IMG/VR virus record: IMGVR_UViG_3300046167_000888
From: a virus
Reading direction: 5' to 3' (one strand)
DNA length: 64,000 nt
Of the stretch, positions 25,151 to 54,470 are shown one piece after another (the first letter of the stretch is position 1; every line of letters begins with the position of its first letter). Both the position numbers and the translations under genes were made by a program. The notes below the pieces were generated by a model that ran no database searches, was not told the DNA's origin, and saw only the letters and a list, made by a program, of their open reading frames with translations.

Positions 25151-25784
25151 TTTACAAACACATTTACATAATTATATTGATGATCCTCTTAATCCTCATT
25201 TTAATGCTGAATTAGGAGAGGCTTATGAACAATTAGGACAGGGAGCTGCTGCTTTATCTTATTTTTTAAGGGCTGCGGAGTTATTGGTTGGTGTAGATAT
25301 AGATTTATCTTATAATTGTCTTTTAAAAACATGGAAGCAAGTAAATAAAATAGGAAGAAGAAATGATTGGGAAAGAGCTCAATTACAATTAGCAACATCT
25401 TATCTACCTACTAGGCCAGAAGCATATTTATTTTTAAGTAAACATTTTGCTAAAAAACAAGATCATCACTCAGCTTATTTATATGCTTGTTTAGGATTAC
25501 AATATATAAATTCAACACCTTTAAAATATAATGTTGGGTATCCTGGTGATTATATGCTATATTTTCTAAAAGCTTATCATGGATGGTACCTAGCTAAAAG
25601 AGAAGAATCAAAATCTATATGGAAAAAATTAGGTGAAATGCCCAATATACCTGAAGAACATAAAAAAATAATCGAAAACAATAATAAAAATTTTAATAAT
25701 ACGCCAACTCCTCCGTCTTTTATAAATTTTGTTATGAAGAATGCAAATGATAGTAAACATGAAAAATATTATATTGGAAAATAA
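25140..25784 (+). CDS. TPR-like protein
   Basis: LGEAYEQLGQGAAALSYFLRAAE and PTRPEAYLFLS helical repeats. Confidence 0.65.
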   Translation: MMSNLQTHLHNYIDDPLNPHFNAELGEAYEQLGQGAAALSYFLRAAELLVGVDIDLSYNCLLKTWKQVNKIGRRNDWERAQLQLATSYLPTRPEAYLFLSKHFAKKQDHHSAYLYACLGLQYINSTPLKYNVGYPGDYMLYFLKAYHGWYLAKREESKSIWKKLGEMPNIPEEHKKIIENNNKNFNNTPTPPSFINFVMKNANDSKHEKYYIGK

Positions 25785-29078: not shown

Positions 29079-29876
29079 ATGATAAAACTGTACGACCTTA
29101 TCAAAGAACAAATTGAAAGACCAAAAGCAATAATTCTAGCTGGTGCTCCTGGTGCTGGTAAAGGTTATGTTTTAAGCGGTTTAAATCTTGATGGTATCAA
29201 AGTACTAAATGTAGATAATGCCTATATTGAACTACTAAAGAAAGCCAATGTATCATTAGATTTAAAAAATGCTGGTCCTGAAGATAGAAGCGAAGCAGCT
29301 AAAGCAATGGCTGCAGCTAATAAAGAATTTAAAGGTAAAGTAGCAGCTACAATAGAAGGTAAAGAATCATTTATTTTAGATGGTACAGCGGCGTCAATCA
29401 AACAAACAGCTAATTTAAAAAAGGAATTAGAAGAAGCAGGGTATGAAGTATTTATGCTTTATGTTTATACTGATTTAGAACGTTCACTTAGACAAAACCA
29501 AGATAGATTTGATAAATCAGGTGGTGAAGATAGAAGTTTAGCACCTGCTATAGTAATGAGAACATGGGCTTCAGTTACTGATAACTATAAAGCATATGAA
29601 GCAATGTTTGACAATAATTTTGTATCTGTTGCTAACACATTAGAAGACGAAAAATTAACTGATATAGCTGATATAGTAAAAAAATATTTAGATCCTTTTA
29701 AACCACAAGGTACAAAACCTAAAGATGCTAAAGCACAAGCAAGATCAGATAAATCAAAAGCAGCATTAAATGATAAATTAAAAGAATTACTATCAGATGA
29801 ACAAGTTCAATTGATAATTAATAATTCAGTATCTAAAGAAGAAGCACAAGCAAAAATAAAACAATTTTTAAGTTAA
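29079..29876 (+). CDS. P-loop kinase (zeta-toxin/AAA_33-like)
   Basis: ILAGAPGAGKG Walker A, LNVDN, FILDGT; leader MIKLYDLIKE. Confidence 0.7.
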   Translation: MIKLYDLIKEQIERPKAIILAGAPGAGKGYVLSGLNLDGIKVLNVDNAYIELLKKANVSLDLKNAGPEDRSEAAKAMAAANKEFKGKVAATIEGKESFILDGTAASIKQTANLKKELEEAGYEVFMLYVYTDLERSLRQNQDRFDKSGGEDRSLAPAIVMRTWASVTDNYKAYEAMFDNNFVSVANTLEDEKLTDIADIVKKYLDPFKPQGTKPKDAKAQARSDKSKAALNDKLKELLSDEQVQLIINNSVSKEEAQAKIKQFLS

Positions 29877-31468
29877 TGGGTTTAGTTAAAGAATTAATAC
29901 GTCCTTTATTAGAGGAAGAAAAAAAAGTAGTAGCTGTTTACGGTGGTGGTTTTAAACCTCCAACTGCGGGGCACTTTGAGGTTGTAGATCAAGCACTAAA
30001 AGAAAACCCTAATATAGACGAGTTTATTATTTTAATTGGTGGTAAAGAAAGAGATGGTATTTCACCTGAAGAATCTTTAATTATATGGGACATTTATAAA
30101 CAATACTTACCTATTAAAGTAGAAGTAAAGTTAAGTTCTAAACCACCGATTCAAGCAGTATACAATTATGCTAAAGAACACCCAAATGAAGAAGTATTAT
30201 TTGTAATTGGCGCTAGAGAAGGTAATGAAGATGATTTTTCTGATATAGCTAAAAGAACAAAATCATTAGATAAATATGATAATTTAGAATTACGTACTAT
30301 TATTACACAAGGTGGAGCATCAGGTACAGCAGCTAGAAATGCAGCTAAAATATCATCTGAAAAATTAAGACCACTATTACCTAAACAATTAAAAGATGAA
30401 GAGGTAGAAGAAATATTTACTATTATGAGTAATGTAGTAAAAGAAAATGATCCTGAAGATGGTAAAGCAGCTCCATATGGTTCAGGGTATAAAAAATTAA
30501 ATGAAGTATTAAATCCATCTACTTTTGATTATAAACCTATAATTAAATCATTAACTAAAAGTATGGAAGATGATGGTTTACAATTAAAACCGTATCCAAA
30601 AATTACTTTTATACATGATGAAGAATCAAATGCTGAAGACTTTTTTGGAAAAACAGCTTATTATGATCCTAATAATAACGAAGTAGTATTATATACATTA
30701 GGTAGACACCCTAAAGATATTATGAGATCGTATGCTCATGAATTGATTCATGTTCACCAAAACCATGAAGATAGATTAGATGGTATTAATACAACTAATG
30801 TTAATCAAGATGATTATTTAGAACAAATTGAACGTGAAGCATATGAAAATGGAAACATTATGTTCAGAAGCTGGACTAATAAAACATTAAATGAAGGTAA
30901 GAAAAAAGATCCATTTGGTATAAATGCCTATGCTAGAGAATTAGCTATGGGTTTAGAAGAACAAGAAGAAGGAGAACATTACATTTATTTAGATATGGAT
31001 GGTGTAGTAGCAGATTTTGATAAACGATTTAAAGATCTATCAGGTATGTTACCTCAAGAATATGTTGATAAAAATGGTTTAAATGCTTTTTGGGATTTAA
31101 TTGATGAAAAACATAAGGTAGCATTTTGGAGAGGTATTGAATTGATGCCTGGTGCTCAAAAATTAGTTAAATTTGTAGAGCAATATCCATTTGAAATGTT
31201 AACTGCTCCATCAGTAAAAAAACAAAGTATTATCGGAAAAGGCTTGTGGGTTAAAGATAAAGTTGGTACCTTGTATTCAACGAAGCCCAAAGTAACATAT
31301 AGAAAAGCTAAATTAAAACATACAGTTAAACCACAATTAACTAAATATGATATTTTAATAGATGATAAAGCAAGTACTATTGATACATGGAATAATTCAG
31401 GAGGTACAGCTATATTATATCAATCAGCTGATCAAGTAATTAATGATTTAAAACAATTAGGTTTATGA
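29876..31468 (+). CDS. Three-domain protein: HIGH-family nucleotidyltransferase + HExxH metallopeptidase-like + HAD 5'(3')-nucleotidase
   Basis: YGGGFKPPTAGH...SGTAAR; AHELIHVHQ...EREAYE; YLDMDGVVADF...ILIDD. Confidence 0.75.
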   Translation: MGLVKELIRPLLEEEKKVVAVYGGGFKPPTAGHFEVVDQALKENPNIDEFIILIGGKERDGISPEESLIIWDIYKQYLPIKVEVKLSSKPPIQAVYNYAKEHPNEEVLFVIGAREGNEDDFSDIAKRTKSLDKYDNLELRTIITQGGASGTAARNAAKISSEKLRPLLPKQLKDEEVEEIFTIMSNVVKENDPEDGKAAPYGSGYKKLNEVLNPSTFDYKPIIKSLTKSMEDDGLQLKPYPKITFIHDEESNAEDFFGKTAYYDPNNNEVVLYTLGRHPKDIMRSYAHELIHVHQNHEDRLDGINTTNVNQDDYLEQIEREAYENGNIMFRSWTNKTLNEGKKKDPFGINAYARELAMGLEEQEEGEHYIYLDMDGVVADFDKRFKDLSGMLPQEYVDKNGLNAFWDLIDEKHKVAFWRGIELMPGAQKLVKFVEQYPFEMLTAPSVKKQSIIGKGLWVKDKVGTLYSTKPKVTYRKAKLKHTVKPQLTKYDILIDDKASTIDTWNNSGGTAILYQSADQVINDLKQLGL

Positions 31469-32047: not shown

Positions 32048-32377
32048 ATGAAAGACAATTTTGATCATTATGCATGGAACCAAAAAAGACATTTGGCTGA
32101 AGGGTTAAATGATCGCATTGGTAAAATAGAAATAATATACACAGAACCAGGACAAGGACGAAGACTATATGCTGTAAAAATAGATGATTCTGTTGGAAAA
32201 AGAATTGATAAAGTTTATCAAGACGATGCAAATGCTATACTTAGATACTTAGGTATTGAAGGTGAATTACCTCGAAGCTTAGGTTTTGATGATGATAAAC
32301 TATTAGATAGTATTGTAAAACAATTACAAGATATGGGTATTGAAGCTGATTGGTGTGATTGTATGGATATAAGTTAA
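32048..32377 (+). CDS. Hypothetical protein with degenerate DNFD...LAEG leader
   Basis: MKDNFDHYAWNQKRHLAEG. Confidence 0.6.
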   Translation: MKDNFDHYAWNQKRHLAEGLNDRIGKIEIIYTEPGQGRRLYAVKIDDSVGKRIDKVYQDDANAILRYLGIEGELPRSLGFDDDKLLDSIVKQLQDMGIEADWCDCMDIS

Positions 32378-32918: not shown

Positions 32919-33792
32919 ATGAAAAAAGTATTATTATTATTGGGGATTATTATTAACGGGATGCTCAACAACGTGGCATGTAAGTACCGTTGGTCATGAT
33001 CCCATTTATGATACAGTTTTAGAAGTACCTGCTGATGTACAAATAGATACATTAAATTACAGGCAACTACAATGGAAATTAAGAACTGATTTTCAATTTA
33101 GATATGATTTTGCTCAGTATGCTTTAAGTCAACCTAGATCATTTGATTGGAATAATCGTATTTTAGGTTACAATTATAATTGGAGTAATAGATATTGGAA
33201 TTACAATTACTATTGGAATCGAGATATGATGTGGCATGATTGGGTTTGGGGTTATCCATACTCAAATTGGAGATGGAACAGTTGGAATCATTGGAATAGA
33301 CCTTATTGGGGTTGGAATAACCATTATTATGGATGGAACAGTTGGGGTTGGAATAATTGGGGTTGGAGACAAGAAATGAACGATTATGCTTGGCATAATA
33401 GAAATAGATCCAATACAGCCTACATTAATGGTAGAAGAGGTTCTAATAATATAGAAAATAGAGTTATTGTTAATAGAAACAAACCAAGAGTTAATGTTGA
33501 TCAAAACAATGTTGACATAATTGCCAATGAAATACGTAGAAGAGTAAATAACAAACCACGAGTTTATAATAATCCAAATAATCCTAACATAAACAATAAT
33601 AGCAGACCTCGAGTTAATAATAACTCTAAACCTGTTAGAGGATATGGTAGACCAGAAATAAACAATTCATCTTCTCCTCGTATTTATAACAGACCACCAA
33701 CGAGTACTAATAACTCTACTGTGAGGCCTTCAAGCAATATAAGTAGAGGTAGCAGTAGTTCAAGAGGAGGTGACCTTAACAAAAGAAATTAA
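32919..33792 (+). CDS. Lipoprotein with W/N/Y-rich and R/N/S-rich low-complexity regions (apparent +1 G near 32943)
   Basis: Removing one G gives MKKVLLLLGLLLTG-CSTTWH..., in frame with ORF 33226..33792. Confidence 0.65.
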
Positions 33793-33816
33793 TATTTATA
33801 AATAAAAATATACATA

Positions 33817-34728
33817 ATGGACAACTTTGACTTAAAAAAATACCTAGCTGAAGGAAGAATCAACCAAGATTCTCAAGAGCTTAACGAGAAAAAACAAGAC
33901 TCTAAAAAAGGTAATAAGGAAGAACAAAAAAGAATGGAAGGCGCTATTAGAGATAATAGAGATCACGTTAAATCTTTAGAAAAAGATATTAAAGCCGACC
34001 AGAAAAAACTTAAAAAACTAAAAGCCGACGAACCTAAAGATGTTAACGAATCTGAAGTAACAGAAGATCGTGCAGCATCAGCAGCAAGAGGATTAGAAAA
34101 CATCATTGACTTTATAACAAAAAATGCTGATAAAGGTAAAGATTGGTGGAAGAAAAATATTTCAAAAAATATTGAAATAGGATCTATGTTACAACAAATG
34201 AAAGAAATAGAAGTAGAAGAAGGATATGGCAAGCCAATGTATGATGAAGATGATACTAAGCCTATGAAAGAAGATGAAAGAACTGATGCTGAAGAAGAAG
34301 GATATGAAGATGGATTCAAAGATGCTAAAAAAGATATGAAAGATGCTATGAGCAAAATGAAAATTTCTGAGCTTAAAGCAAAAATTAGAGAAGATATCTT
34401 AGCTACACTAGCTGAAGCTGATGAAGTAACTGAAGCAGAAGAAGATGTTGATGTTGATATTGACGATGAAGTAGAAGCAGACGTTAATGTAGATGTTAAA
34501 GATACAGTAGATGTAGATGCTGAAGGAGACGAAATTGATATTGTAAAACCAGCTGTTAAAGCAAAAGTAGAAGTTGGTTTATCTCCAGAAGAAGAAATAG
34601 TACAAGATTCTTTAAAAGCTGCAATGGATGCCGCTGATGCCATAGGAAACGATAAATTAGCTGATCAGATTGGAAATACAATTACATTTTTCACTAGAGA
34701 ATATGTAGTTGGAAGAAACACTGATTAA
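33817..34728 (+). CDS. Putative internal head protein with MDNFDLKKYLAEG leader
   Basis: Late motif at 33792; acidic; shares EDxRTDAEEEGYEDG with the scaffold protein. Confidence 0.6.
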   Translation: MDNFDLKKYLAEGRINQDSQELNEKKQDSKKGNKEEQKRMEGAIRDNRDHVKSLEKDIKADQKKLKKLKADEPKDVNESEVTEDRAASAARGLENIIDFITKNADKGKDWWKKNISKNIEIGSMLQQMKEIEVEEGYGKPMYDEDDTKPMKEDERTDAEEEGYEDGFKDAKKDMKDAMSKMKISELKAKIREDILATLAEADEVTEAEEDVDVDIDDEVEADVNVDVKDTVDVDAEGDEIDIVKPAVKAKVEVGLSPEEEIVQDSLKAAMDAADAIGNDKLADQIGNTITFFTREYVVGRNTD

Positions 34729-34731
34729 CAC

Positions 34732-36235
34732 ATGCTTAACGAGCGCAAACTTACGGAGAGAGAACTAGACCATCGCGAAGTTGTCCTTCAAAATTTGTTG
34801 AAAAACAAAAGGAACCTAGTCAAACGATATGGTAAGGATGCGGAAAAGGTTATGTATGGAATAGCAACTAAAAAGGCTAAAAGTAAAATCGAAGGCATGA
34901 ATAAAGAGAAAATCAAAGAACTTATTAGAACACAACTAGAAGGGATAGACTCTTCTCCTAGGTCTAACACAGATGATATCGATGCTAACAAATCATATTC
35001 AGGTGGTGCTGATTATGGTTCTGAAGTTTCAGCTACCTCAGCTGAAGATAGCGTTGAACAAGGAGAAACTCAACCATTACACTATAGTTTAGAAGAAGGC
35101 CATGGTTTAGACCAAGGTGATATTGATGTATTAAAATATATGATATCACAACTTAAATCAGGAGGTGATTTATCTATGGATGTAGGTGCTAGAAAAAAAA
35201 TGGATTAAAGTTTTAACTTTCCTTATTAAATCTAACATAATACAAGACAAAACAAAAGATTTATCTAAAGATAAAATTGAAGAAGAAAACATTAGTTTAG
35301 ATGAAGTAGGATATAATGATGGAGAACAAGCAGTTGCTATGCACTTCAATCAAGATGTAGTTGGTATTAATAATGAATCTGATTTTAAACAATATAAAAA
35401 AGGATTTATTCAAGCTGTTGTTGACGAAACACAATCATATGCCTTAGAAGAAATGGATGTAAATGATCCAGTTCTAATGAAATTAAGAGCTGCAGCAGCA
35501 AAAAAAGATAGACAAGAAAAAGCTAAAAGTAGAATTAGCTATGAAGATGCTATGGATTTAAGATTAACGTTATCTCAATTAGAAGATTCTAGAGATAGGT
35601 TAGTTAGAGATATGGAACAAGAAGCTGAACCAGAAGGAGGGCCGATTGCAGATAGATATGGTGATGAATTAAATAAATTAGAAGATCGTATAGATTCAAT
35701 TAGAAAAAAGATTAACGATTACGATATGAATGAATCAGCAGTTACTGAATCTAAAGGTGCTAAAAATTATTTTGACGATTTAAAATTTAATTACCAAAAA
35801 GCATTTAGATACTTAGATGCAGATGAAAAAGAAGAATATAAGCAATTAGCTAAAAATTACTTTTCTCAATTAAAAGAGGGTTTAGATGAAAAAATATCTT
35901 CTCTAGTTAAAGAAAAACTAACAAAATCATCATCAGTAGAAGATCACATTGAAGATTTTAAAGATTCAGACGCACCTCAATTTAAAGGTAAATCATTAAA
36001 GAAAATTAAGCAAATGGCTTTAGCATCATTTTTATCAAAACAAGGTAAAAAAAAGGTAGCTGAAGGGTTTAAAGTAGGCCAAGAAGTAGAATATCTAGGA
36101 CATCCAGGTGTAATTACTTTAGTTGATAAAGATGTAATGGATAGAGTTTTCTATAATGTATCTTATGATAAAGGTAATGGTAAAACTAAAGTATCAAATA
36201 TCTATAACAAAGGTGGTGAAATAAAAGCGGTATAA
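34732..36235 (+). CDS. Modular putative internal head protein (apparent +1 A in A8 run near 35195)
   Basis: ORFs 34732..35208 and 35186..36235 join after removing one A; many [LIVM]-x-E junctions; DFKDSDAPQFKGKS module. Confidence 0.55.
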
Positions 36236-36237
36236 CA

Positions 36238-36699
36238 ATGACTAAAGCAGAATTAAGAGAAAAAATTAGAGCTCTAGCATTACAAGTTGTTGGGGAAAAA
36301 AGCAAAGCAGAAGATGCTGCTTTAGCTTATGACGAATTAACTAAATTCCCTGAATTAAAAGATATTATTGTTAATTTATTAACACATGAGTTTGATTCAT
36401 TTTTAGAGGATATTGAATGGGTAGCTCCTAAACCTACAACATTCAGAATCGTTCTACTAAACGGACAATATTTTTTATTAACGTTTAGTCCTAGAAGTTG
36501 GATTGCAACAATAGAAGGTAAAAAATATTATTTACTAAATCTTGATGAAGAAGAGTATGCTTGTCAAGCAATTGCTCGTATATTACAGTATGGACCTAAA
36601 TCAGGAGCTGATGCAAGTGCAGACGCAGATGCTGATGCCGGTGCTGATGATGTAGAAGTTGAAGATGAAGTAGATGTTAACGTTGATGTAGACGCATAA
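36238..36699 (+). CDS. Hypothetical protein with acidic tail
   Basis: 153 aa; PKPTTFRI core; C-terminal DDVEVEDEVDVNVDVDA. Confidence 0.6.
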   Translation: MTKAELREKIRALALQVVGEKSKAEDAALAYDELTKFPELKDIIVNLLTHEFDSFLEDIEWVAPKPTTFRIVLLNGQYFLLTFSPRSWIATIEGKKYYLLNLDEEEYACQAIARILQYGPKSGADASADADADAGADDVEVEDEVDVNVDVDA

Positions 36700-36700
36700 A

Positions 36701-37915
36701 ATGGATATAGTAGAAAAAATCATAAGAGACAACTGTTGGAAATTTGATAAGGGGTATCCTGATAGTCAAGAGGATATTAATTATCTTAAATCTTTAATTG
36801 AACAACAATACAGTTTATTTTCAGATGAAGAACTTGCTGCTATGGTTACAAAGGATGTTGGTATTGAAGATGAGGACTTTGATACAGAAAAAGAATTAAG
36901 GTCGATATTAGATAAAGCAGATAGAAGAGTTAAAGAAAAATATAAATTTAATGATCCTGAAATGTTTAACAAAATAGTTAATGGGATTATGAATGCTAGA
37001 CTACAACCAGAACTATTAGACCTTTTAAGAAGAAAAGGATATAACAAAATTATTTTAGATAGATATGCAACTGAATTAGCTTCAGTTTTTAATTCAGTAG
37101 CAGATAAAGATAGAGATAAATTTATTAACTACATAACTTCAGATAATCAAAAATCTTTTGCTAAACAACCAGTGGGAAATATAAAAGATGAAATCAAAGC
37201 TACTGGTATGAATTTTGAAGATGATACTGTTCTTGATAACTTAGTAAAATTTACTACTCAAGATGAAAAAAAATTAGGAGTAGGTGCAGGGGAATTAGCA
37301 TTAGCTATGTTATTTGATAATGTGGGGGCAGCTAAAAATAAAGGTGATTTAACTTTAGATAATGGAGAATTTGAAATTAAGGGATATAATGCTAAATTAG
37401 GGAGAGATCCATCTGCTTATAAAGTTAATGTTGATGATGTTGCCAAACTAGGTATTAAAAGAGTAGATGGAAAACGTGGTACTAAAAACTTTACCAAAAT
37501 GTTTGTAGGGGATAGGGAATATAGCTTAAATAGATTTCCCGACTTGCTTGAAGCATTATATGAAAAAGCTGAAGATAAAGATCAATTTAAACAAGATGTA
37601 TTTGATTTACTTACTGCTGACCCAGGTCCTGCACTCCCTGCCGAAGCTGTAAAATACAGATTAGATAAAACAGATTTTACAAATGCTAATAATATACAAA
37701 AAAATATAGGCTTAATGAATTTTATTCGTTATGCTCAAGAAGAAAAATTCCCTCATTTTTTAGTACATGATATGGGACAAAAAGGTGCTTCAAATACTGG
37801 TGAATATGTATACGTGTCGGGAGATGCTAAATCTATGTCTGATCAATTATTTAAGTCTCCGGCTTATTTTCAAGATATTGGTTTAAATAATGTTAACCCT
37901 AGAATAAGATTATAA
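36701..37915 (+). CDS. Hypothetical protein with possible PD-(D/E)xK nuclease-like core
   Basis: GVGAGELAL...KGDLTLDNGEFEIKG. Confidence 0.45.
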   Translation: MDIVEKIIRDNCWKFDKGYPDSQEDINYLKSLIEQQYSLFSDEELAAMVTKDVGIEDEDFDTEKELRSILDKADRRVKEKYKFNDPEMFNKIVNGIMNARLQPELLDLLRRKGYNKIILDRYATELASVFNSVADKDRDKFINYITSDNQKSFAKQPVGNIKDEIKATGMNFEDDTVLDNLVKFTTQDEKKLGVGAGELALAMLFDNVGAAKNKGDLTLDNGEFEIKGYNAKLGRDPSAYKVNVDDVAKLGIKRVDGKRGTKNFTKMFVGDREYSLNRFPDLLEALYEKAEDKDQFKQDVFDLLTADPGPALPAEAVKYRLDKTDFTNANNIQKNIGLMNFIRYAQEEKFPHFLVHDMGQKGASNTGEYVYVSGDAKSMSDQLFKSPAYFQDIGLNNVNPRIRL

Positions 37916-37916
37916 T

Positions 37917-38549
37917 ATGTGTAAAAAATGTGGATGTAATACTTGTGAAGTAAAAATAAGAGGACCACTCTTAACAGAAAATAAAGTTAAATCTTTATTA
38001 TCTGAAAACTTATCTTATCATATTGATAATAACATTTCATTAATGGAAAATGTATTCAGAATTGGTTCTGATGCTCATTTATCTATGATTAAAGAAGCAA
38101 GAAAATTATATTCACGTGGCGTACTTGATTTATGTGAAGAAGATGAAGGGTTAATGGAAACACATTTAGGTGAATTTGATTTATTTGAAAATGAAATTGT
38201 ACCTTTAGATTTACCTATGATCGATCTAAATGAAGATGAGCAATTAGACGAAAAGAAAAAGGCTAAGAAAAAGAAAAAAGATCCACCAATTGGAAAACCA
38301 AAACGTGGTGGTTCAAAAGCATATTACGTTTATGTAAGAGATCCTAAAACTAAAAGAATTAAAAAAGTATCATTTGGATCAGGTGGTTTAAGAGCTAAAA
38401 TTAGAAATCCTAAAGCACGTAAAGCATTTGCTGCTAGACATAAATGCTCTCAAAAAACAGATAGAACAAAACCATCATATTGGTCTTGTAGATTACCTAG
38501 GTACGCAAGTCAATTAGGTTTAGGTGCTAATATGAATACATTTTGGTAA
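37917..38549 (+). CDS. Hypothetical protein with Cys-rich N-terminus and highly basic C-terminal module
   Basis: MCKKCGCNTC...; after QLDE: KKKAKKKKKDPPIGKPKRGGSKAYYVYV...FAARHKC...YWSC. Confidence 0.6.
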   Translation: MCKKCGCNTCEVKIRGPLLTENKVKSLLSENLSYHIDNNISLMENVFRIGSDAHLSMIKEARKLYSRGVLDLCEEDEGLMETHLGEFDLFENEIVPLDLPMIDLNEDEQLDEKKKAKKKKKDPPIGKPKRGGSKAYYVYVRDPKTKRIKKVSFGSGGLRAKIRNPKARKAFAARHKCSQKTDRTKPSYWSCRLPRYASQLGLGANMNTFW

Positions 38550-38550
38550 A

Positions 38551-39105
38551 ATGAACGAATTAAAAGTAAAAAAAACAATGGATGACGTTCTTGAACCTAA
38601 ACAGTTCAATGATCGTCAATCTTATCCTCAAAAGGAAACAGCAGCTATGCGAGCTCCAGGTACTGGAGAAGATGCAGAAGCAAGAGCACCTTACTATATT
38701 CGTTACATGAAAACCTTAGATGAGGTACTTACTGAAAAAAAGAAAAGAGACAGATGTCTTAGAATAGCAGATAGAAAATTTGATAAACCTTCAGCATACA
38801 AATCAGGTGCTGTAGTAAGATGTCGTAAAGGCGATATTTGGAAAGGTGTAAAAGAAGCGGTTGTTAATCAATTAACTGAAGATGAATCATTACGTAAATG
38901 GTTTAAACGTTCAGGTCCCTCAGGTAAAGAAGGTGGATGGGTTGACTGTAATACAGGAAGAAAAGACCCTAAAACAGGAAAAATGAAGTACAAAGCTTGT
39001 GGGAGAAAAAAAGGAGAAAAAAGAGCAAAATACCCGTCTTGTAGACCTACACCTGGAAAATGTAAAGATAAAGGAAAAGGAAAAAAATGGGGAAAAACGA
39101 AATAA
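38551..39105 (+). CDS. Hypothetical protein with two basic Cys-containing modules
   Basis: VLTE|KKKRDRC...SAYKSGAVVRCRKG and QLTE|DESLRKWF...WVDCN...YPSCRP. Confidence 0.6.
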   Translation: MNELKVKKTMDDVLEPKQFNDRQSYPQKETAAMRAPGTGEDAEARAPYYIRYMKTLDEVLTEKKKRDRCLRIADRKFDKPSAYKSGAVVRCRKGDIWKGVKEAVVNQLTEDESLRKWFKRSGPSGKEGGWVDCNTGRKDPKTGKMKYKACGRKKGEKRAKYPSCRPTPGKCKDKGKGKKWGKTK

Positions 39106-39350
39106 ATCCTTATCTTGATAAGGGTAATATAAGAACATTTTCTAAAGATGTTGATCCGATGGAATTGGTTTGGCATCAAGATGATGAAGATAGAAAAATA
39201 GAAATCCTTGAAGGCGAAGGATGGTGTATTCAACGAGATAATATGCTACCAAGATCGATGAAGAAAGGAGAAACCATATTTATAACCAAAGGTGAAGTAC
39301 ACCGAATATTAAAAGGCACAACTGATTTAAAAATAAAAATAAATGGATAA
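39087..39350 (+). CDS. Small cupin-like protein
   Basis: ELVWHQD..DR, IFITKGEVHRILKG. Confidence 0.55.
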   Translation: MGKNEINPYLDKGNIRTFSKDVDPMELVWHQDDEDRKIEILEGEGWCIQRDNMLPRSMKKGETIFITKGEVHRILKGTTDLKIKING

Positions 39351-39759
39351 CTTCGATTTAAGAAAATATTTAGCTGAAGGTAAGCTCTTTGAACAAGATA
39401 GATATAAAAAAGTAGAGGACGATGCACAAGATGGTACCTTTTATGTTTCCGGATATGATATGGAAAATGAAAGAGATATCGATGATTATTTTGTTGATCT
39501 AAATTATGGTAAATATAAATCTGCTACTCAAGAATTATTAGACCTTGCTATGGAACAAGGACACGCGTATGAAAGTATAGAAGATTATTACGAATATGTT
39601 GAAGGATTTGAAAATGATCTAAAAGATTATGCTGAAGGTGAAGAAGTACCTGATTGGAAGATGAATGATCTAGCTATGCGTTTTGGAGATGATTATAGTC
39701 AATTTTATGGTGAAGAAGAAGATGAAGACTATGAAGAAGAAGAATATGAAGATTATTAA
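39343..39759 (+). CDS. Leader-tagged acidic protein 1 (putative internal/ejected protein)
   Basis: MDNFDLRKYLAEG leader; about one third Asp/Glu, Tyr-rich. Confidence 0.7.
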   Translation: MDNFDLRKYLAEGKLFEQDRYKKVEDDAQDGTFYVSGYDMENERDIDDYFVDLNYGKYKSATQELLDLAMEQGHAYESIEDYYEYVEGFENDLKDYAEGEEVPDWKMNDLAMRFGDDYSQFYGEEEDEDYEEEEYEDY

Positions 39760-39771
39760 AAATAAAAAACA

Positions 39772-40068
39772 ATGGATAACTTTGATTTAAGAAAATATTT
39801 AGCTGAAGGTCGCTTATTAAAAGAAGAAGTAGACTATGAAATCGAACTTTTAGTTCCAAAAGTAGCCTTTGATGTAGAATCAGGTGAACTAGCAGATTCT
39901 CCTTATGCATTTGCTACTGCAGATGAAATTGAAAGCGGTGAAGCTGATGTTACTACTTATACTGATGGAGATGAATTAGATGAGTGGGTTTTTGACCGTA
40001 GCTACGAGAACGCTAAACGCTTTGAAAAAGAACACCCAGGTTTATTTAAAATAAAAACAAATGGATAA
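39772..40068 (+). CDS. Leader-tagged acidic protein 2
   Basis: MDNFDLRKYLAEGRLLKEE plus an unrelated acidic payload. Confidence 0.7.
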   Translation: MDNFDLRKYLAEGRLLKEEVDYEIELLVPKVAFDVESGELADSPYAFATADEIESGEADVTTYTDGDELDEWVFDRSYENAKRFEKEHPGLFKIKTNG

Positions 40069-40327
40069 TTTTGATTTAAGAAAATATTTAGCTGAAGGTA
40101 AGCTATTAAAAGAAGATTATGATAAAGAATCACTTATTAAAGCTTTAGGAGATAATGATGATGCTTTTATTCAATTAGGAGATGGAAGAGAGTTTATAGT
40201 ATACAACCCAAACTCTAATAATGATGATAATGCAGATATGTGGGATGATTATTCTGTATTTGCATTAGACCAAGATGGAGAAGAACACGAAATATTATAC
40301 TCAGATATAGCAGGAATTAATATATAA
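40061..40327 (+). CDS. Leader-tagged acidic protein 3
   Basis: MDNFDLRKYLAEGKLLKED plus an unrelated acidic payload. Confidence 0.7.
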   Translation: MDNFDLRKYLAEGKLLKEDYDKESLIKALGDNDDAFIQLGDGREFIVYNPNSNNDDNADMWDDYSVFALDQDGEEHEILYSDIAGINI

Positions 40328-40337
40328 ATAAAAATAA

Positions 40338-40403
40338 ATGAAATGTAATTGTAAAGTATGTAATTGTGGAGCATCATGTGATTGTACATGCTGTAATTGC
40401 TAA
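40338..40403 (+). CDS. 21-aa metallothionein-like Cys-rich micropeptide (not in ORF track)
   Basis: MKCNCKVCNCGASCDCTCCNC: 9 Cys in CxC/CC pattern; same AAATAAAAATAAATG start context as neighbouring genes. Confidence 0.65.
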   Translation: MKCNCKVCNCGASCDCTCCNC

Positions 40404-40464
40404 AATAAACAACATATAGACTGATTCATAGCCAGTCGAGATTAAAAAGAAAAATAGACATCTG

Positions 40465-40492
40465 TGGCGTCTCCCTAGGAGACGCCATTTCT
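40465..40492 (+). terminator. Perfect 10-bp hairpin (terminator-like) overlapping a promoter
   Basis: tggcgtctcc-cta-ggagacgcca then tttct. Confidence 0.6.
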
Positions 40493-40529
40493 AGTTCGTA
40501 TATTCACGTGTTAAAATGATAATAAAAAT

Positions 40530-41876
40530 ATGAGTAAAAGTGTAGTAATGATTGGAGCAGGTGTAGCAAATGTAAATGCTGCTACTAAGCTAATTGACAA
40601 TGGTTTTAAGGGTAAAATTACCATTATTGATATGGGTAAAGATCCATATTTAAGACCTTATGAAGAAGTAATGACAGGTTTCCTAGGAGCAGGAGGTTGG
40701 TCTGATGGTAAATTAACTTATCATACTTCCATTGGAGGACAATTATCTAAATATTGTGGTGAAGAAAAAGCAATGGAATTATTTGATCAAGTAATTAATA
40801 ATTTTAAACGATTCCATCCTAAACCAGAAGAAGTACAATGCTCTAACCCTGTAGCTGAGCCCGATTTTATTAAACCATATTTTGGATTAAGACTATTCCC
40901 AGTATGGCACGTTGGTACAGATTATCTACATGAAATAGGTAAAAATTGGTATGACTTTTTAGTTCAAGGTGGTGTTGAATTTCTATGGGAAACTAAAGTT
41001 ACAGATATTGATTTTGATAATAGTAAAGTATACTACCCTAAAGTAGCAGAAACAGATAGTGCTGGGTTACCTGATGATTTACAATGGGTAAATATGGAAA
41101 CATTAGAATATGATGAACTTATTTTTGGTGTAGGTAAATCAGGAATTGATTTTGGTAAACAATTAGCTGAAAAGTATGATTTACCAACTGAACCAAAACC
41201 AGTACAAATTGGTGTTCGGTTTGAAGCGCCACAAAAACACTTTCAAAAATTAATTGATGTAAGCTATGATTTCAAATTGTATCGTAAATTCGAAGACAAA
41301 GGAGTATCATTACGTTCATTCTGTACAAACAACAACGCAGCTTATGTTGCCGTTGAGGAAACGTATGGAGATCATTCGTACAATGGACACGCTAAAAAAG
41401 ACGAAGCATTTAGGAACGATATGACCAATTTTGGTATTCTAATGGAAGTTAGAGGTATTGATAAACCATTTGAATGGTCTAGAGATGTAGTAAATAAATT
41501 ACAAAAAGATGGTACTGGATTATATTATAGTCCAAGTAGAAAACCATCTCAAACATCAGAAGGAATAGATGTATCAGCTATCCAAGTAGATACATTACAT
41601 AAAATATCAAAAGCAATGCAACCATACTTTATGTATGTATATGATTTTATTGAAGACATGAAAAAAGTATTCCCAACACTTAAAGATGATTGGGGTATTT
41701 ATGTGCCTGAAGTAAAATACTTATCACCTGAACCACTTGTCGATTATTCCGATTTAGCTCTTACTAAGTATCCTAACGTCCACTTTGTTGGTGATGCTCT
41801 TTCCGCTAGAGGTATAACGGTAAGTGGTGCACAAGGTACTTATGTTGCTGAAAGTTTACTAGGAAAACTAAAATAA
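40530..41876 (+). CDS. FAD-dependent oxidoreductase (uncharacterised FAD-dependent dehydrogenase type)
   Basis: VMIGAGVA Rossmann motif, GFLGAGGWSDGKL, IGVRFE, RSFCTN, VHFVGDA. Confidence 0.8.
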   Translation: MSKSVVMIGAGVANVNAATKLIDNGFKGKITIIDMGKDPYLRPYEEVMTGFLGAGGWSDGKLTYHTSIGGQLSKYCGEEKAMELFDQVINNFKRFHPKPEEVQCSNPVAEPDFIKPYFGLRLFPVWHVGTDYLHEIGKNWYDFLVQGGVEFLWETKVTDIDFDNSKVYYPKVAETDSAGLPDDLQWVNMETLEYDELIFGVGKSGIDFGKQLAEKYDLPTEPKPVQIGVRFEAPQKHFQKLIDVSYDFKLYRKFEDKGVSLRSFCTNNNAAYVAVEETYGDHSYNGHAKKDEAFRNDMTNFGILMEVRGIDKPFEWSRDVVNKLQKDGTGLYYSPSRKPSQTSEGIDVSAIQVDTLHKISKAMQPYFMYVYDFIEDMKKVFPTLKDDWGIYVPEVKYLSPEPLVDYSDLALTKYPNVHFVGDALSARGITVSGAQGTYVAESLLGKLK

Positions 41877-49390: not shown

Positions 49391-50860
49391 ATGAAAACAC
49401 TACAAGAACAATACAACCAAATCCAAAAAGGTGAAGGTCGTAAAGATTTATTTTTAAAAGAAGCTAAATCAAAATATCCAAATTTGATTTCAAATATTAC
49501 TTCATTTAGCGATGCTGAAAAAATCCTAAAAAGTAAAAGTGTCATCAATGAAGAACTAGGTGGTGTAGTTACATTACAACCAGTAAACAAATTAACTTCT
49601 GAAGACTTTAACCCAAATAAACAAGCTTGGGAAAACAAGTTCGAACAGTTTTTAGCTGAAGCAGGTAAAAAAGAATTAAATCCTATTGTTGATACTAAAG
49701 TAGAAGAAGAAATCAATGATAAAGCAGGTGATGAAAAAATTAAAGCTGAAGAAAAAGAAACAGCTAAAGAAGTAATCAATACTCAAGATAGAAATTATGA
49801 TTACTCTCCTAAAGTAGATAACATTAATAATGTTAATGCTCAGGAAATGATGAATGGTGTATACTGTGAAATTAAAGAAAACCCAAGCTTATCACTAGAA
49901 GAAGCACAAGCTAAAGTAATTAAAAATTTAGCTAAAGACCAAATGTATTATGTAAAAGAAGGTCAATTTGGAGTTGCGGGGTTAGGATACTCAGAACAAA
50001 AAGTTGAAGAAAATAGTGGTAAAACATATGGTGGTAGTGGATACAGTGATAAAGTAAAAGAAGGTAAAGCTGATATGGTACCAGTTAAAGAATCAGTAGA
50101 CACAAAAATTAAATCTTTAATTAAAGAACATTTAGGTGGAGTTGTTACTACAGGTAACCCAAATTCATTAGCAGCACAATCAGGAAATGCTATTAGACAA
50201 ATGATGCAAGAAGAATGGCAAGAAGAAGTAGGTTCTCAATACCATGATTCATTATATGCTGAAGGTGAAAAAAGACCTGATTATCCAGATGTAGATGGAG
50301 ATGGTGATACTAAAGAACCAATGGAAAAAGCACTTAAGGATAAAAAAGAAAAAAAGAAAAAAGTAAAAAAAGAATCAATTGACTCTAAATTAGCTGAAAT
50401 AGGTAAAGAAGCAGAAGCTGTAAAATTAGAAGCTCAATTAGATTATATCCATGAGTATATTCAAGAAAAAGTAGATAGAGTTGCTTCAATTAATGAAGAT
50501 GAAAATCTTAAAGAATTAATTGATAAAAAGAAAATGAAAGACATGCAAAGAGAAATCAAGCTTTTAGAAAAGAAAAAAGCAGCGATGGAAAAAATCTATG
50601 AAAAGTCTTGTGGTAAAAAATATTCTAAAAAGGAAATGGTAGATGAAGTTAATGACGAAGCTGAACTACCTATGGATGAAAGTACAGTAAATGAGGGTAC
50701 TTCTACTCCAGAAATGTCTGCTGCAATAGCTGAAATTAAAGCTAAACTAGAAGAAGGTGGTTACCCATTTGATCAATGTTTAGATGATAATGAACCTAAA
50801 TACGGAAAAGAAGGAGCAGCTAAAATATGTGGTAGTATTAAAGCAAAACACGGAGAATAA
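49391..50860 (+). CDS. Modular putative internal head/core protein
   Basis: MKTLQEQ start (compare T4 internal-protein MKTYQEF); many [LIV]xE sites; DVDGDGD loop. Confidence 0.55.
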   Translation: MKTLQEQYNQIQKGEGRKDLFLKEAKSKYPNLISNITSFSDAEKILKSKSVINEELGGVVTLQPVNKLTSEDFNPNKQAWENKFEQFLAEAGKKELNPIVDTKVEEEINDKAGDEKIKAEEKETAKEVINTQDRNYDYSPKVDNINNVNAQEMMNGVYCEIKENPSLSLEEAQAKVIKNLAKDQMYYVKEGQFGVAGLGYSEQKVEENSGKTYGGSGYSDKVKEGKADMVPVKESVDTKIKSLIKEHLGGVVTTGNPNSLAAQSGNAIRQMMQEEWQEEVGSQYHDSLYAEGEKRPDYPDVDGDGDTKEPMEKALKDKKEKKKKVKKESIDSKLAEIGKEAEAVKLEAQLDYIHEYIQEKVDRVASINEDENLKELIDKKKMKDMQREIKLLEKKKAAMEKIYEKSCGKKYSKKEMVDEVNDEAELPMDESTVNEGTSTPEMSAAIAEIKAKLEEGGYPFDQCLDDNEPKYGKEGAAKICGSIKAKHGE

Positions 50861-50861
50861 A

Positions 50862-51467
50862 ATGAGTAGAAAACTACTAATAGAAACTCAACCTCTTAAA
50901 TTTTCCCCAAAAGTACTAACAGAAAATGTTAGCAAGGAAAATGGTAACCTTATTGTTGAAGGCGTCTTAGCTACAGCAGAGGTTAAAAATGGTAACGGTC
51001 GTTACTATGCTAAAGAGTTGTGGGAAAGAGAAATGGATAAATACCAAACTCTTATTGATGAAAGAAGATCAATGGGAGAATTAGATCATCCAGAATCACA
51101 AGTTATAAATTTACAAAATGTATCCCATGTTATTACTGAATGGGGTTGGGATGGAGACCATGTAATGGGTAAAATAGAAATATTACCAACACCATCAGGA
51201 AAAATACTTTTAGAACTTATTAAAAATGGTGTTACAGTAGGTGTATCATCTAGAGGAATGGGTTCATTAGAACAAAGAGGTAATGTAATGGAAGTACAAG
51301 ATGACTTCGAATTATTATGTTGGGATTTTGTTTCTACACCATCCAATCCAGGATCATTTATGGGTGTTTTACAAGAAGGTAAACAACACGTAGAATATGA
51401 TTATAATAAAGTTAATAGTGTAATACATGAAATCCTTTGTTCTAAAGGTTCTTGTCCAATTCTGTAA
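50862..51467 (+). CDS. Prohead core protease (T4 gp21-like)
   Basis: KNGNGRYY, MGELDHP, NVSH, ILPTPSG, GVSSRGMGS, WDFVSTPS; likely start MSRKLLIE at 50862. Confidence 0.92.
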   Translation: MSRKLLIETQPLKFSPKVLTENVSKENGNLIVEGVLATAEVKNGNGRYYAKELWEREMDKYQTLIDERRSMGELDHPESQVINLQNVSHVITEWGWDGDHVMGKIEILPTPSGKILLELIKNGVTVGVSSRGMGSLEQRGNVMEVQDDFELLCWDFVSTPSNPGSFMGVLQEGKQHVEYDYNKVNSVIHEILCSKGSCPIL

Positions 51468-51588: not shown

Positions 51589-52776
51589 ATGGCAACAAAC
51601 AGAGATTTGCTAAAGGAAGCTATTGCTGATGCTAAAACCGTTAAGGAAACAGCTATCGCAAACGCTAAACTTGCTCTAGAAGAAGCTTTTACTCCATTCT
51701 TAAAAGATCAATTATCTGCTAAATTGCAGGAAATGGATAAAGATGAGGATGATGTAAAAGAAGAAGTAGAAGCAGTTGAAGAAATGGATGCTCCTAGTTT
51801 TGAAAGAAAAAATTCTCCGGCTGGTGATTCTTTAAAAGATCTTGCGCCAAAAAAAGTAGGTCAATCTACAGTGCAAGAAGATAAAAAAGAAGAATTAGAT
51901 GAGGAAGAAATTAATCTTGATGAACTATTAGCAGAGCTTGAAGATTCTAAAGAAATTGACGAAGCAAAAAAGGACGACGACAAGGAAGACGTTAAAGAAG
52001 ACGCTAGAACTGACGCCGAAGAAGAAGGCTACGAAGATGGAATGAAGGACGAAAAAGAAGACATGGAAGACGAGGAAATTGACCTTGAAGATATGTCAGA
52101 AGACGACCTTAAAGGATTTATCGAGGATGTCATTAAAGACATGGTCGCAGCTGGAGAAATCGAGCCTGGCGATGAATTCGTAGAAGACGAAGTTGAAGTT
52201 GAAGACGTTGAAGACGTAGAAGTTGAAGACGACGTAGACGTAGACATTGAAATCGACGAAGCTAAGAAAAAAGAAGGTGAAGAAGTAAAAGAAGCAAAAG
52301 AAGAAGAAAAAGTAGACGAAGGCTACAGTAACAAAGACGGAGATAAAGATGATTCCCCAACTGAGAAAAAATCTCAAAAAGGAAGATTTGCTAAAAACGG
52401 AGATGTTTCTGAAGAATTAGAAACTGCTTTAGCTGAAATTAACTCATTGAAAGATGAATTAAATGAAGTTAACTTACTAAATGCTAAATTACTTTACACT
52501 AATAAAATTTTCAAAGCGAAAAACTTAAACGAAAGTAAAAAAATCAAAGTGTTAAAAGCATTTGACAAAGCGAAAAACGTTGAACAAGCAAAAACTATTT
52601 TCGAAACATTGAATGAAGGAATTACATCAAGTGTAACTACTCCAACAATCAATGAATCAGTTAAAAAAGGTGCTGCTTCAAAAGCTAGTGGTTTAGAACC
52701 AAAAGCAACAAAACAACCAATTATCGAGTCTAATGATGTTTATAACAGAATGAGAAAACTTGCTGGGTTATTGTAA
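51589..52776 (+). CDS. Prohead scaffold protein
   Basis: Very acidic coiled-coil protein between protease and capsid gene; LNEVNLLNAKLLYTNK; C-terminal RMRKLAGL. Confidence 0.8.
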   Translation: MATNRDLLKEAIADAKTVKETAIANAKLALEEAFTPFLKDQLSAKLQEMDKDEDDVKEEVEAVEEMDAPSFERKNSPAGDSLKDLAPKKVGQSTVQEDKKEELDEEEINLDELLAELEDSKEIDEAKKDDDKEDVKEDARTDAEEEGYEDGMKDEKEDMEDEEIDLEDMSEDDLKGFIEDVIKDMVAAGEIEPGDEFVEDEVEVEDVEDVEVEDDVDVDIEIDEAKKKEGEEVKEAKEEEKVDEGYSNKDGDKDDSPTEKKSQKGRFAKNGDVSEELETALAEINSLKDELNEVNLLNAKLLYTNKIFKAKNLNESKKIKVLKAFDKAKNVEQAKTIFETLNEGITSSVTTPTINESVKKGAASKASGLEPKATKQPIIESNDVYNRMRKLAGLL

Positions 52777-52811: not shown

Positions 52812-54470
52812 ATGAGCTTAAATTCACTATTAGAAAGTGCTAACACTTACCAAAACATGCAGTCAGATGCAGCAAGGTTAGCAGGAAAATGGGAAAAAAC
52901 AGGTCTTTTAGAAGGTTTAGATGGTGCACACAAATCAAACATGGGTATTATCTTAGAAAACCAAGCTAAACAACTTGTAGTTGAGTCTTCACAAACTGGT
53001 GGAGGTGCTGCTTCAAGTGGTACTTTTAGTTCACAAACACAGGTTAACATCGGTGGTCAGTGGGCAGGAGTTGCTTTACCTTTGGTAAGAAAAGTATTTG
53101 GTCAAATCGCAGCAAAAGAATTTGTTAGCGTTCAACCAATGAACTTACCTTCAGGTCTAGTATTTTTCTTAGACTTCCAATACGGAAGCGACAAATCACC
53201 ATTCTCAAGTGGTTCTTCTTTATACGGTAACAGTATAGGTGGAAACAACTTCGGGAACGACAGCGAAGGTGGTTTATACGGATCAGGTAGATTCGGATAT
53301 TCAATTAACAACACACAGTCTATTTATTCTACATCATCTGCTGTAGCTACTGCTACTTTAGCTGATATGGATTATGACTCTGCTTATTCTTCAAGTTCAG
53401 GATTCCCTACATTTGATAAAGTAAGTGTACCAGTAGCATCACTAGACTTCTTAGATAAAGAAGGTGTTAATGCTTTCCAATTCGGTACAGGATCTTTAGA
53501 TTTTATCGCGAATTCACTTGTTGGTAACCAATTGTCTCAATTCACTAAGTGGGATGAAGATGCACAAGTTGTTAACTTTATCGTAAGTAAATCATTTGGT
53601 GTAGCAGTTGATGATACAAACACTGTTTGTTACCAACTACAACCAACTGATAGATACAGAGGTGATTTTGAAGATGGAAACCCAGAGCCAAACAGCTTGA
53701 ACTCTCCATCAATCTCAATCCCAGAAATCAACGTACAGATGAAATCATCTGCTATCGTTGCTAAAACTAGAAAATTGAAAGCTGTATGGACGCCAGAATT
53801 CGCACAGGATTTAAATGCATACCATGCATTAGATGCTGAAGCGGAATTGACTTCTATCTTAAGTGAGTACATTTCACTAGAAATTGATTTAGAGATCTTA
53901 GATATGTTGATCAGTGGCGCTGCTGCTGGAAACGAAGTATGGTCAGCTGAAAACAACGTTAGTGTTACTAGCGCTGCAGGTGCTCAGAAAAACTTAGGAT
54001 TCTACAACTCTCAAGGACAGTGGTTCCAAACATTAGGAACTAAAATCCAAAAATTAAGTAACATCATTCACCAGAAGACTTTAAGAGGTGGAGCAAACTT
54101 CCTAGTATGTTCTCCTTCTGTAGGTACTATCCTAGAATCTATTCCAGGATTTGCTGCTGATACTGATGGCGATGCTGCAAAAGCAACTTATGCATTTGGT
54201 GTTCAGAAAGTTGGTTCATTAAACGGAAGATATAAAGTTTACAAGAACCCTTACATGAAATCTAACGTAATGTTGTTAGGATTCAGAGGATCTCAATTCT
54301 TGGAAACTGGTGCTGTATTTGCTCCATATATTCCATTAATCATGACTCCACTAGTATACGATCCAAATACCTTTACACCAAGAAAAGGTCTATTGACTCG
54401 TTACGCTAAGAAGATGGTTAGACCAGAATTCTACGGAACAATTGATATCGCAGGTTTAAACACTCTATAA
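52812..54470 (+). CDS. Major capsid protein (T4 gp23-like)
   Basis: KWEKTGLLEG, ENQAK, VSVQPMNLPSGLVF, AKTRKLKAVWTPEFAQDLNAYH, APYIPL, TRYA. Confidence 0.95.
   Translation: MSLNSLLESANTYQNMQSDAARLAGKWEKTGLLEGLDGAHKSNMGIILENQAKQLVVESSQTGGGAASSGTFSSQTQVNIGGQWAGVALPLVRKVFGQIAAKEFVSVQPMNLPSGLVFFLDFQYGSDKSPFSSGSSLYGNSIGGNNFGNDSEGGLYGSGRFGYSINNTQSIYSTSSAVATATLADMDYDSAYSSSSGFPTFDKVSVPVASLDFLDKEGVNAFQFGTGSLDFIANSLVGNQLSQFTKWDEDAQVVNFIVSKSFGVAVDDTNTVCYQLQPTDRYRGDFEDGNPEPNSLNSPSISIPEINVQMKSSAIVAKTRKLKAVWTPEFAQDLNAYHALDAEAELTSILSEYISLEIDLEILDMLISGAAAGNEVWSAENNVSVTSAAGAQKNLGFYNSQGQWFQTLGTKIQKLSNIIHQKTLRGGANFLVCSPSVGTILESIPGFAADTDGDAAKATYAFGVQKVGSLNGRYKVYKNPYMKSNVMLLGFRGSQFLETGAVFAPYIPLIMTPLVYDPNTFTPRKGLLTRYAKKMVRPEFYGTIDIAGLNTL

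Follow-up and report, generated by a model that had tools for sequence, protein, structure and literature searches.

A constant N-terminal leader on unrelated acidic proteins of a far-T4 phage is a probable head-targeting, protease-clipped signal on exchangeable cargo

The internal proteins of T-even phages are diverse, with the capsid-targeting sequence (CTS) alone conserved (PMC3012670). Within the T4 CTS, residues 4 and 7 act in targeting and residues 8 and 10 in processing, and aspartate at position 10 blocks processing but leaves targeting intact (PMC9026906). T4 IPII and IPIII both start with MKTYQEFIAE, their genes have 30 identical bases in common, and the mature proteins contain no [LI]-x-E and have an isoelectric point (pI) of 9.6. 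Here we describe an arrangement of similar logic in a 64,000-nucleotide stretch of viral DNA (IMG/VR record IMGVR_UViG_3300046167_000888; the whole stretch is called the window below), in which one constant N-terminal leader, or tag, precedes unrelated acidic proteins, three of them encoded in a tandem array upstream of the terminase gene. From sequence comparisons, we consider it likely that this leader is a head-targeting, protease-clipped signal on swappable cargo of the T4 internal-protein type.

The leader copies are real: a degenerate back-translation of MDNFDL[RK]KYLAEG matches the window exactly four times, always on the + strand (33817, 39343, 39772, and 40061), all four matches are starts of open reading frames (ORFs), and 100 dinucleotide-preserving shuffles of the window yielded no match. 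An initial annotation of this DNA had described a 13-residue leader within a repeated 55-nt unit. The leader is constant as stated, but the conserved tag extends to about 19 residues (MDNFDL[RK]KYLAEG[RK]L[LFY][KE]E); likewise, the coding part of the unit is shared, but its length is only approximate, because the A-rich stretch upstream is merely similar among copies, with indels. The three tandem leaders differ at two synonymous sites (AAC/AAT and TTC/TTT) in 38 coding bases, and the leader at 33817 differs from that at 39772 at 6 of 39 bases, with 5 of these differences synonymous, both as first reported.

Behind these leaders, the three tandem payloads are acidic and, as had been claimed, unrelated, falling into separate BLASTP clusters at E≤1e-3. 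The first tagged gene (39343..39759, + strand, 138 aa) comprises the leader in codons 1 to 19, a compact payload, and an acidic tail, and scores 49 bits against the leader profile. The second (39772..40068, +, 98 aa) has a payload that forms a singleton cluster (pI 4.08), and the third (40061..40327, +, 88 aa) carries a small alpha/beta payload behind a leader that matches the profile; both payloads have a pI of about 4.1. Neighboring genes overlap, such that the stop codon of the 39772 gene falls within the next leader (overlap ATGGATAA). The fourth copy stands apart from the array, on a conserved acidic protein of 303 aa (33817..34728, +) with homologues in 23 of the listed loci. A proposed fifth copy (MKDNFD...HLAEG), on a 109-aa protein at 32048..32377 (+), scores below zero against the leader profile and is not counted as a member; a diverged leader there is plausible from sequence, because the orthologue in L037 has a more canonical start, MGNFNIHSFYKKQYLAEA. 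The transcription unit of the array is closed by a terminator-like hairpin (40464..40488, +; 11-bp stem with 7 GC pairs and a T-rich tail), which is the sole + strand terminator-like site from 33000 to 41000. Between the last cassette and this hairpin lies a 21-codon Cys-rich ORF (40338-40403, with CxC and CC runs) whose A-rich start context is like that of the cassettes, and L164 and L165 have a longer Cys-rich ORF (MDFCYCDICGCNGG...) in the matching interval.

The window is part of a T4-like ("far-T4") myovirus: by PHROGs matches, it encodes a large terminase, a portal, a head maturation protease, a gp23-like major capsid protein, and a tail sheath. Among cultured phages, Flavobacterium phage vB_FspM_immuto (hereafter immuto) is the closest relative, with a major capsid protein that is 54.6% identical; next in the capsid-protein ranking come a Microcystis phage and Rhodothermus phage RM378. 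One of the array proteins recurs unchanged on a 166-kb contig, and a bin named Robiginitalea sp. holds one homologue of the scaffold protein described below. Given the capsid kinship to immuto and the scaffold homologue in the Robiginitalea bin, the host probably belongs to the marine Flavobacteriia.

A scan of IMG/VR for the leader pattern recovered at least 120 loci with one to four copies each, encoding at least 143 distinct proteins of 30 to 336 residues. A tag profile built from 148 leader N-termini matches 1392 clusters at E≤1e-3 among 1.84 billion cluster representatives, and the best-scoring match begins at residue 1 to 3 in 144 of the 150 best hits. Leaders can be sorted into class A (MDNFDL.KYLAEG), class B (MKELYRFRQFLTEG), A/B hybrids such as MKELNIFKKYLAEG, and, in more distant relatives, class C (M.K.ELKKLIKEE). 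Across classes A and B, E12 is the sole invariant residue after M1, and conservation reaches 90% or more at Y9 and L10; the [L/I]-x-E ending is present in the variants LAE, LTE, ISE, LVE, IKE, and IRE. The strict leader DNA pattern finds no match in immuto, missing diverged copies that surfaced by N-terminal clustering and profile search: four immuto ORFs, starting at record positions 1803, 103762, 117587, and 118588, carry the diverged tag MENFDLKKFLVENKL (profile E values of 9e-7 to 3e-4 against the immuto ORF set), and two of these immediately precede the terminase gene, matching the arrangement in the window. Class-C-like starts in immuto (MKKSELVKLIKEE and similar) resemble the N-terminus of the scaffold protein. 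A tblastn search with the 88-aa array protein against 50,697 cultured and deposited phage records gave no match at E≤10, and a full-text literature search for the string MDNFDL returned no paper. One of the tagged immuto genes, immuto35A_193 (L001 10736-11737), is annotated as a cob(I)alamin adenosyltransferase (PduO); if this label is correct, the tag sits on an enzyme. A separate N-terminal motif, ...F(K/R)RMQ.LAGIITE(S), which ends in I-T-E, also recurs on unrelated proteins (immuto record positions 25470 and 111631; the L061, L180, and L121 intervals) and may be another leader class.

The core of the leader, hydrophobic-x-x-aromatic-[LI]-x-E, matches the T4 heptad YQEFIAE at the targeting and cleavage positions; aligned by the cut site, the T4 heptad corresponds to LRKYLAE in class A, FRQFLTE in class B, and LKKLIKE in class C. 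The payloads, in turn, are depleted in the cleavage motif. Against a composition-shuffle null, 72 nonredundant payloads contain 78 [LI]-x-E (131.9±9.7 expected, z −5.5) and are enriched in [LI]-x-D (185 observed, 143 expected, z +3.8). A second set of 102 modules, taken from the representative search, behaves in the same way (118 versus 164.9 for [LI]-x-E, z −3.95; 233 versus 184.1 for [LI]-x-D, z +4.1), and its remaining Leu-Glu spacings are near expectation. The 66 untagged proteins of the window have the opposite bias (238 [LI]-x-E versus 176.5 expected, 1.35×, z +4.95), as do acidic untagged window proteins (60 versus 47.5, 1.26×). The contrast between Glu and Asp would fit selection by a Glu-specific protease.

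The cleavage half of the tag also recurs inside proteins. An internal [LIV][ATS]EG[KR][LIV] junction is present in 5 of 134 locus-derived tagged proteins (0.07 expected) and in 68 of the top 150 profile hits, a set skewed to multi-unit proteins because match scores add up. Since the full leader is kept in just 13 of those 68, the sequences indicate that the processing half is retained between polyprotein modules and the targeting half is lost; in P0038 and P0049, for example, payloads are joined via the cleavage half alone (LAEG[KR]L..E). The packaging tag put forward in the initial annotation thus draws indirect support from the T4-CTS core match, the avoidance of [LI]-x-E, and the half-tag junctions, with loading and clipping as its predicted steps. 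Alternatively, the leader could have nothing to do with the capsid and act as a shared tag for partner binding, regulation, or degradation, for instance by docking to a phage or host hub protein or as a timing degron, with LAEG-RLLKE forming a helix and linker. Structure models in which the leader forms a short helix leading into a flexible linker would suit such a role, and packaging is itself inferred; this alternative leaves unexplained, however, the avoidance of [LI]-x-E alongside a preference for [LI]-x-D, the retention of the cleavage half alone in polyproteins, the register match to the T4 CTS, and the placement in a head-gene region, and we regard it as unlikely.

The head-assembly genes of the window supply candidate partners for such a tag. 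The gp21-like protease first noted at 50862 is real: the gene at 50784..51467 (+; inner start at 50862) matches phrog_207 (9e-57) and the Pfam family Peptidase_S77 (PF03420, E 2.7e-24), and its product is 32% identical to T4 gp21 with the motifs GELxHP and GVSSRG preserved. We propose that it is the leader-clipping enzyme. Downstream are genes for an acidic scaffold (prohead core) protein (51589..52776, +), whose N-terminus, DLLKE/A, is leader-like, and for the gp23-like major capsid protein (52812..54470, +; phrog_138), which has an N-terminal propeptide; the T4 gp23 cut site LTE/A aligns with LVVE/S of the window protein. In the scaffold, [LI]-x-E is overrepresented (15 observed versus 8.7 expected, z +2.5). 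Its family comprises at least 8000 clusters, marking a very abundant lineage, and the motif ARTDAEEEGY.DG is present twice in some scaffold proteins. The tagged 303-aa protein at 33817 and the scaffold have a module of about 30 residues in common. Over RTDAEEEGYEDG, the two are identical at 12 of 12 residues with 4 synonymous DNA differences, and this motif is invariant throughout the scaffold family; through the shared module, the 33817 protein may link the tag to the prohead core. A complex prediction of the leader N-terminus with the scaffold returned "no answer" (score 0.00), which is evidence neither way.

The kinship to the scaffold also bears on a different fate for the payloads, in which the tag would target the core and be clipped but the payloads would be transient core or filler proteins that aid head assembly and are lost at maturation. 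The payloads are acidic, as the scaffold is, and the 33817 protein has the scaffold module. Conversely, the scaffold is enriched and the payloads are depleted in [LI]-x-E, which suggests that the payloads are meant to survive the protease, and the presence of 0 to 6 tagged genes per locus, including empty sites, fits accessory functions and not assembly parts. Moreover, the T4 scaffold exits the head as peptides, and intact folded proteins of 7 to 30 kDa, such as these payloads, are not expected to leave a closed capsid. A transient role of this kind seems improbable to us.

In the mechanism that we favor, the tag of about 19 residues would be a two-part, T4-type capsid-targeting and processing signal. 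Its first half (F4, L6, and Y9) would dock the new protein onto the scaffold core of the assembling prohead, and its second half (Y-L-A-E, then G-[KR]-L-x-x-E) would be the site at which the S77 protease cuts after Glu, freeing the mature payload inside the head. The payloads appear to have evolved without internal [LI]-x-E sites and would for that reason survive the protease, remaining in the capsid and probably exiting with the DNA at infection. At the DNA level, the leader together with its A-rich start region would provide homology for the gain, loss, and swapping of cassettes upstream of the terminase gene.

Several considerations weigh against this mechanism. Docking on the prohead core, protease cleavage, retention of the proteins in virions, and injection are steps that we infer from sequence. 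The match to the T4 CTS is a seven-residue pattern, too short for homology or a statistical test, and secondary-structure differences between Asp and Glu contexts could feed the [LI]-x-E depletion signal. The payloads are acidic (median pI 4.2), in contrast to the basic T4 internal proteins (pI 9.6), and such a charge would be odd for proteins stored beside densely packed DNA. Finally, all tagged contigs with comparable flanks represent a single phage lineage, and for this reason the co-occurrence of the tag with the S77 protease is not independent evidence.

We also compared the array locus among related contigs. In most tagged loci, gene order matches that of the window, with the array located between an 87-aa gene and an FAD-oxidoreductase-like gene, upstream of the terminase. 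The conserved upstream anchor (39087..39350, +; homologues in 61 of the listed loci) has its stop codon inside the first leader, and the downstream anchor (40530..41876, +; phrog_12409; 69 of the listed loci) has relatives on at least 595 IMG/VR contigs. From these, 80 loci were gathered via the downstream gene alone, avoiding ascertainment through the leader. In the 44 loci that have both anchors, the interval spans 130 to 4579 bp and holds 0 to 6 tagged genes as counted by a classifier for class A and B leaders, which leaves class C starts and A/B hybrids unscored; 25 of the 44 are scored as zero, some of which hold leader-like starts, and about 15 loci have empty intervals of 130 to 173 bp with no ORF of 45 residues or more. 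Payload number thus varies between fixed flanks, and so does payload identity (133 payloads in 45 single-linkage clusters). The tag is portable, in that members of one payload family can follow a class A leader, follow a class B leader, or form a downstream module of a longer protein, and the 29 homologues of the 88-aa protein likewise comprise class A-tagged, class B-tagged, and internal-module forms. For one payload family, homologues with no leader are present in unrelated phages; the label "high potential iron-sulfur protein" that they carry is unsupported by Pfam, and we set it aside.

The suggestion that the leader repeat permits payload exchange by recombination agrees with the breakpoints seen among close relatives, whose homology breaks off where leader meets payload, the pattern that repeat-mediated exchange would be expected to leave. 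Contig L099 is 97.4% identical to the window from 39213 through the first cassette and second leader; the identity ends at 39833, about 20 codons into the second gene, and picks up again at 40456. L127 lacks precisely the array, from 39344 to 40319. Leaders differ at 4.8 positions in 45 nt within arrays and at 5.5 between arrays (p=0.03). Concerted evolution or in situ duplication of leaders was considered and rejected, as leaders of one array resemble each other scarcely more than they resemble leaders of other arrays, and for the same reason cassettes seem to move with their own leaders.

A repeat at recombination breakpoints raises the question of whether the conserved entity is the DNA or the peptide. 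Residue 14, outside the search pattern, is always K or R and uses six codons; residue 15, also outside the pattern, is Leu in 130 of 138 copies (TTA in 70, CTA in 53); and at residue 4, which the pattern does cover, TTC and TTT are used 69 times each. Because synonymous codons vary and the peptide is preserved, codon usage indicates that selection acts on the leader peptide, not on the DNA. The unit could still be a DNA or RNA element, such as a translation initiation signal, regulatory cassette, or recombination linker, with the peptide as a by-product. The conserved A-rich start context, the homology breakpoints and precise empty site at the repeat, and the precedent in T4-type phages of shuffling mediated by PeSLs (promoters with a stem-loop; PMC2839356) are all in keeping with this possibility. 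It is disfavored by the freedom of synonymous sites to vary with the peptide kept, by classes A and B being unlike in DNA and alike in residue pattern, by the occurrence of the motif in frame in the middle of ORFs, and by the barely greater likeness of leaders within arrays than between them, and we consider it very improbable. A recombination role of the leader repeat is nevertheless compatible with a targeting and processing signal and forms part of that explanation.

The payloads themselves are small, folded, mostly acidic proteins (computed pI with a median of 4.2 and 86% of values below 5). The tagged proteins of the window have no Pfam, PHROG, or NCBIfam assignment, and 89 diverse tagged proteins from the loci have essentially no Pfam or PHROG assignment; single Pfam hits to Tad5 (E 0.0076), Phage_capsid_2, and Peptidase_S41 are at chance level for 89 queries and were rejected. 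In the AlphaFold2 (AF2) model of the 138-aa protein, the predicted local distance difference test score (pLDDT) is about 50 for the leader and about 90 for the payload, with one of five models confident, and the model of the 88-aa protein reaches 78 overall with the leader below 56. The models depict a flexible leader standing apart from a compact payload (pLDDT 86 to 95). Fold searches of the PDB and Atlas gave no match to the 138-aa payload model and no significant match to the 88-aa payload model, the latter with a weak Sm/Hfq-like resemblance (E 0.01) from which we deduce no function.

The initial annotation had suggested that the payloads are DNA mimics or anti-defense proteins, but family searches with 89 tagged proteins and fold searches with two payload models gave no significant match to a characterized inhibitor such as Ocr, ArdA, IPI*, or a Tad protein, and such a role is speculation. 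That the payloads are injected effectors of any kind is a tentative reading of the sequence evidence, one that we would not bet on. In its broader form, which we put forward with equal reserve, an abundant lineage of phages of marine Flavobacteriia would pack and inject a very large, fast-turnover set of unrelated acidic proteins by means of one recombination-portable tag, and the payloads would be a little-explored source of counter-defense or host-takeover effectors. Under this reading, the set would comprise more than 1000 families at 50% identity, some of them made as polyproteins cut at internal half-tags and possibly including DNA mimics.

If true, the tag would flag, by sequence alone, more than 1000 protein families carried in the heads of ocean phages. 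The recipients would be abundant algal-bloom-degrading bacteria, and the families would form a catalogue of candidate counter-defense or takeover effectors that at present carry no annotation. The T4 internal-protein principle would grow from three basic coliphage proteins to a large acidic cargo system on a distant branch of the T4 superfamily, with the addition of polyprotein cargo split by half-tags. The tag could also serve as a short, portable means of loading foreign proteins into the heads of Bacteroidota phages. Phage immuto and Flavobacterium sp. LMO8 are a cultured phage/host pair carrying the tag, which makes the idea directly testable.

Several other features of the window were recorded. 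Two conserved basic proteins with Cys residues, encoded just before the array (37917-38549 and 38551-39105), are strongly enriched in [LI]-x-E (9 observed versus 2.0, z 5.5, and 3 versus 0.5, z 3.6, respectively) and may be precursors of small basic peptides made by the head protease; the second has a borderline DUF5872 match, slightly under the gathering score. A 489-aa protein that belongs to no known family and is encoded between the genes for portal and protease (49391-50860; [LI]-x-E 15 observed versus 7.4 expected, z 3.1) is a candidate for another processed component of the prohead core. Farther upstream, a Zeta-toxin/AAA_33-type kinase (29079-29876; PF06414, E 2e-17) adjoins a 530-aa protein with no Pfam match (29876-31468), and both are conserved in relatives. 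Three large proteins (3243-4838, 5298-8426, and 12261-14591) have a common N-terminal motif, MATWKK(V/L)(I/V)VSGS, which is also found in immuto (record position 136185) and resembles a common attachment module of fiber-like proteins.

Among other described systems, the giant phages phiKZ, 201phi2-1, and SPN3US have many head-internal proteins whose propeptides are removed after Glu by a T4-type protease, together with paralogous families and the cleavage motif S/A/G-x-E. Propeptide removal by a gp21-like protease is thus a likeness between their head "ejection" or inner-body proteins and the proteins described here; to our knowledge, giant phages have no single constant leader on unrelated small cassettes at one variable locus. 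Polymorphic toxin and effector systems resemble the tagged cassettes, by analogy only, in combining a constant delivery module with many exchangeable payloads; they use other machinery, the present tag is far shorter, and neither Pfam nor PHROGs identified a toxin domain in the 89 diverse tagged proteins. In PeSL-mediated shuffling, short repeated motifs flank ORFan cassettes that come, go, and are exchanged in hyperplastic regions of T4-type phages (PMC2839356). The turnover of cassettes between short repeats at variable loci is alike in both cases, but the repeat described here is coding and selected as a peptide, whereas a PeSL is a promoter with a stem-loop.

The closest likeness is to the T4 internal proteins. 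Both systems place a short N-terminal tag ending in aromatic-[IL]-A-E on unrelated small proteins, and in both the tag is common to adjacent genes at the DNA level. An S77 protease is encoded in each, the tag has a targeting half and a processing half (here as a proposal), and the mature T4 parts lack [LI]-x-E, in which the present payloads are depleted. The differences are also considerable: no sequence homology is detectable beyond the seven-residue pattern; the present tag has about 19 residues and a second L-x-E, compared with 10 residues in T4; the payloads are acidic (pI about 4.2) and not basic; and the tag profile matches 1392 clusters, compared with a handful of proteins in T4. The system described here, which is known from sequence, further includes multi-payload polyproteins joined by half-tags and belongs to phages whose hosts are placed in the marine Flavobacteriia. 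Overall, it is of the T4 internal-protein/CTS type in its logic and in most features that sequence can test, and it is new in its tag, charge, scale, polyproteins, and hosts.

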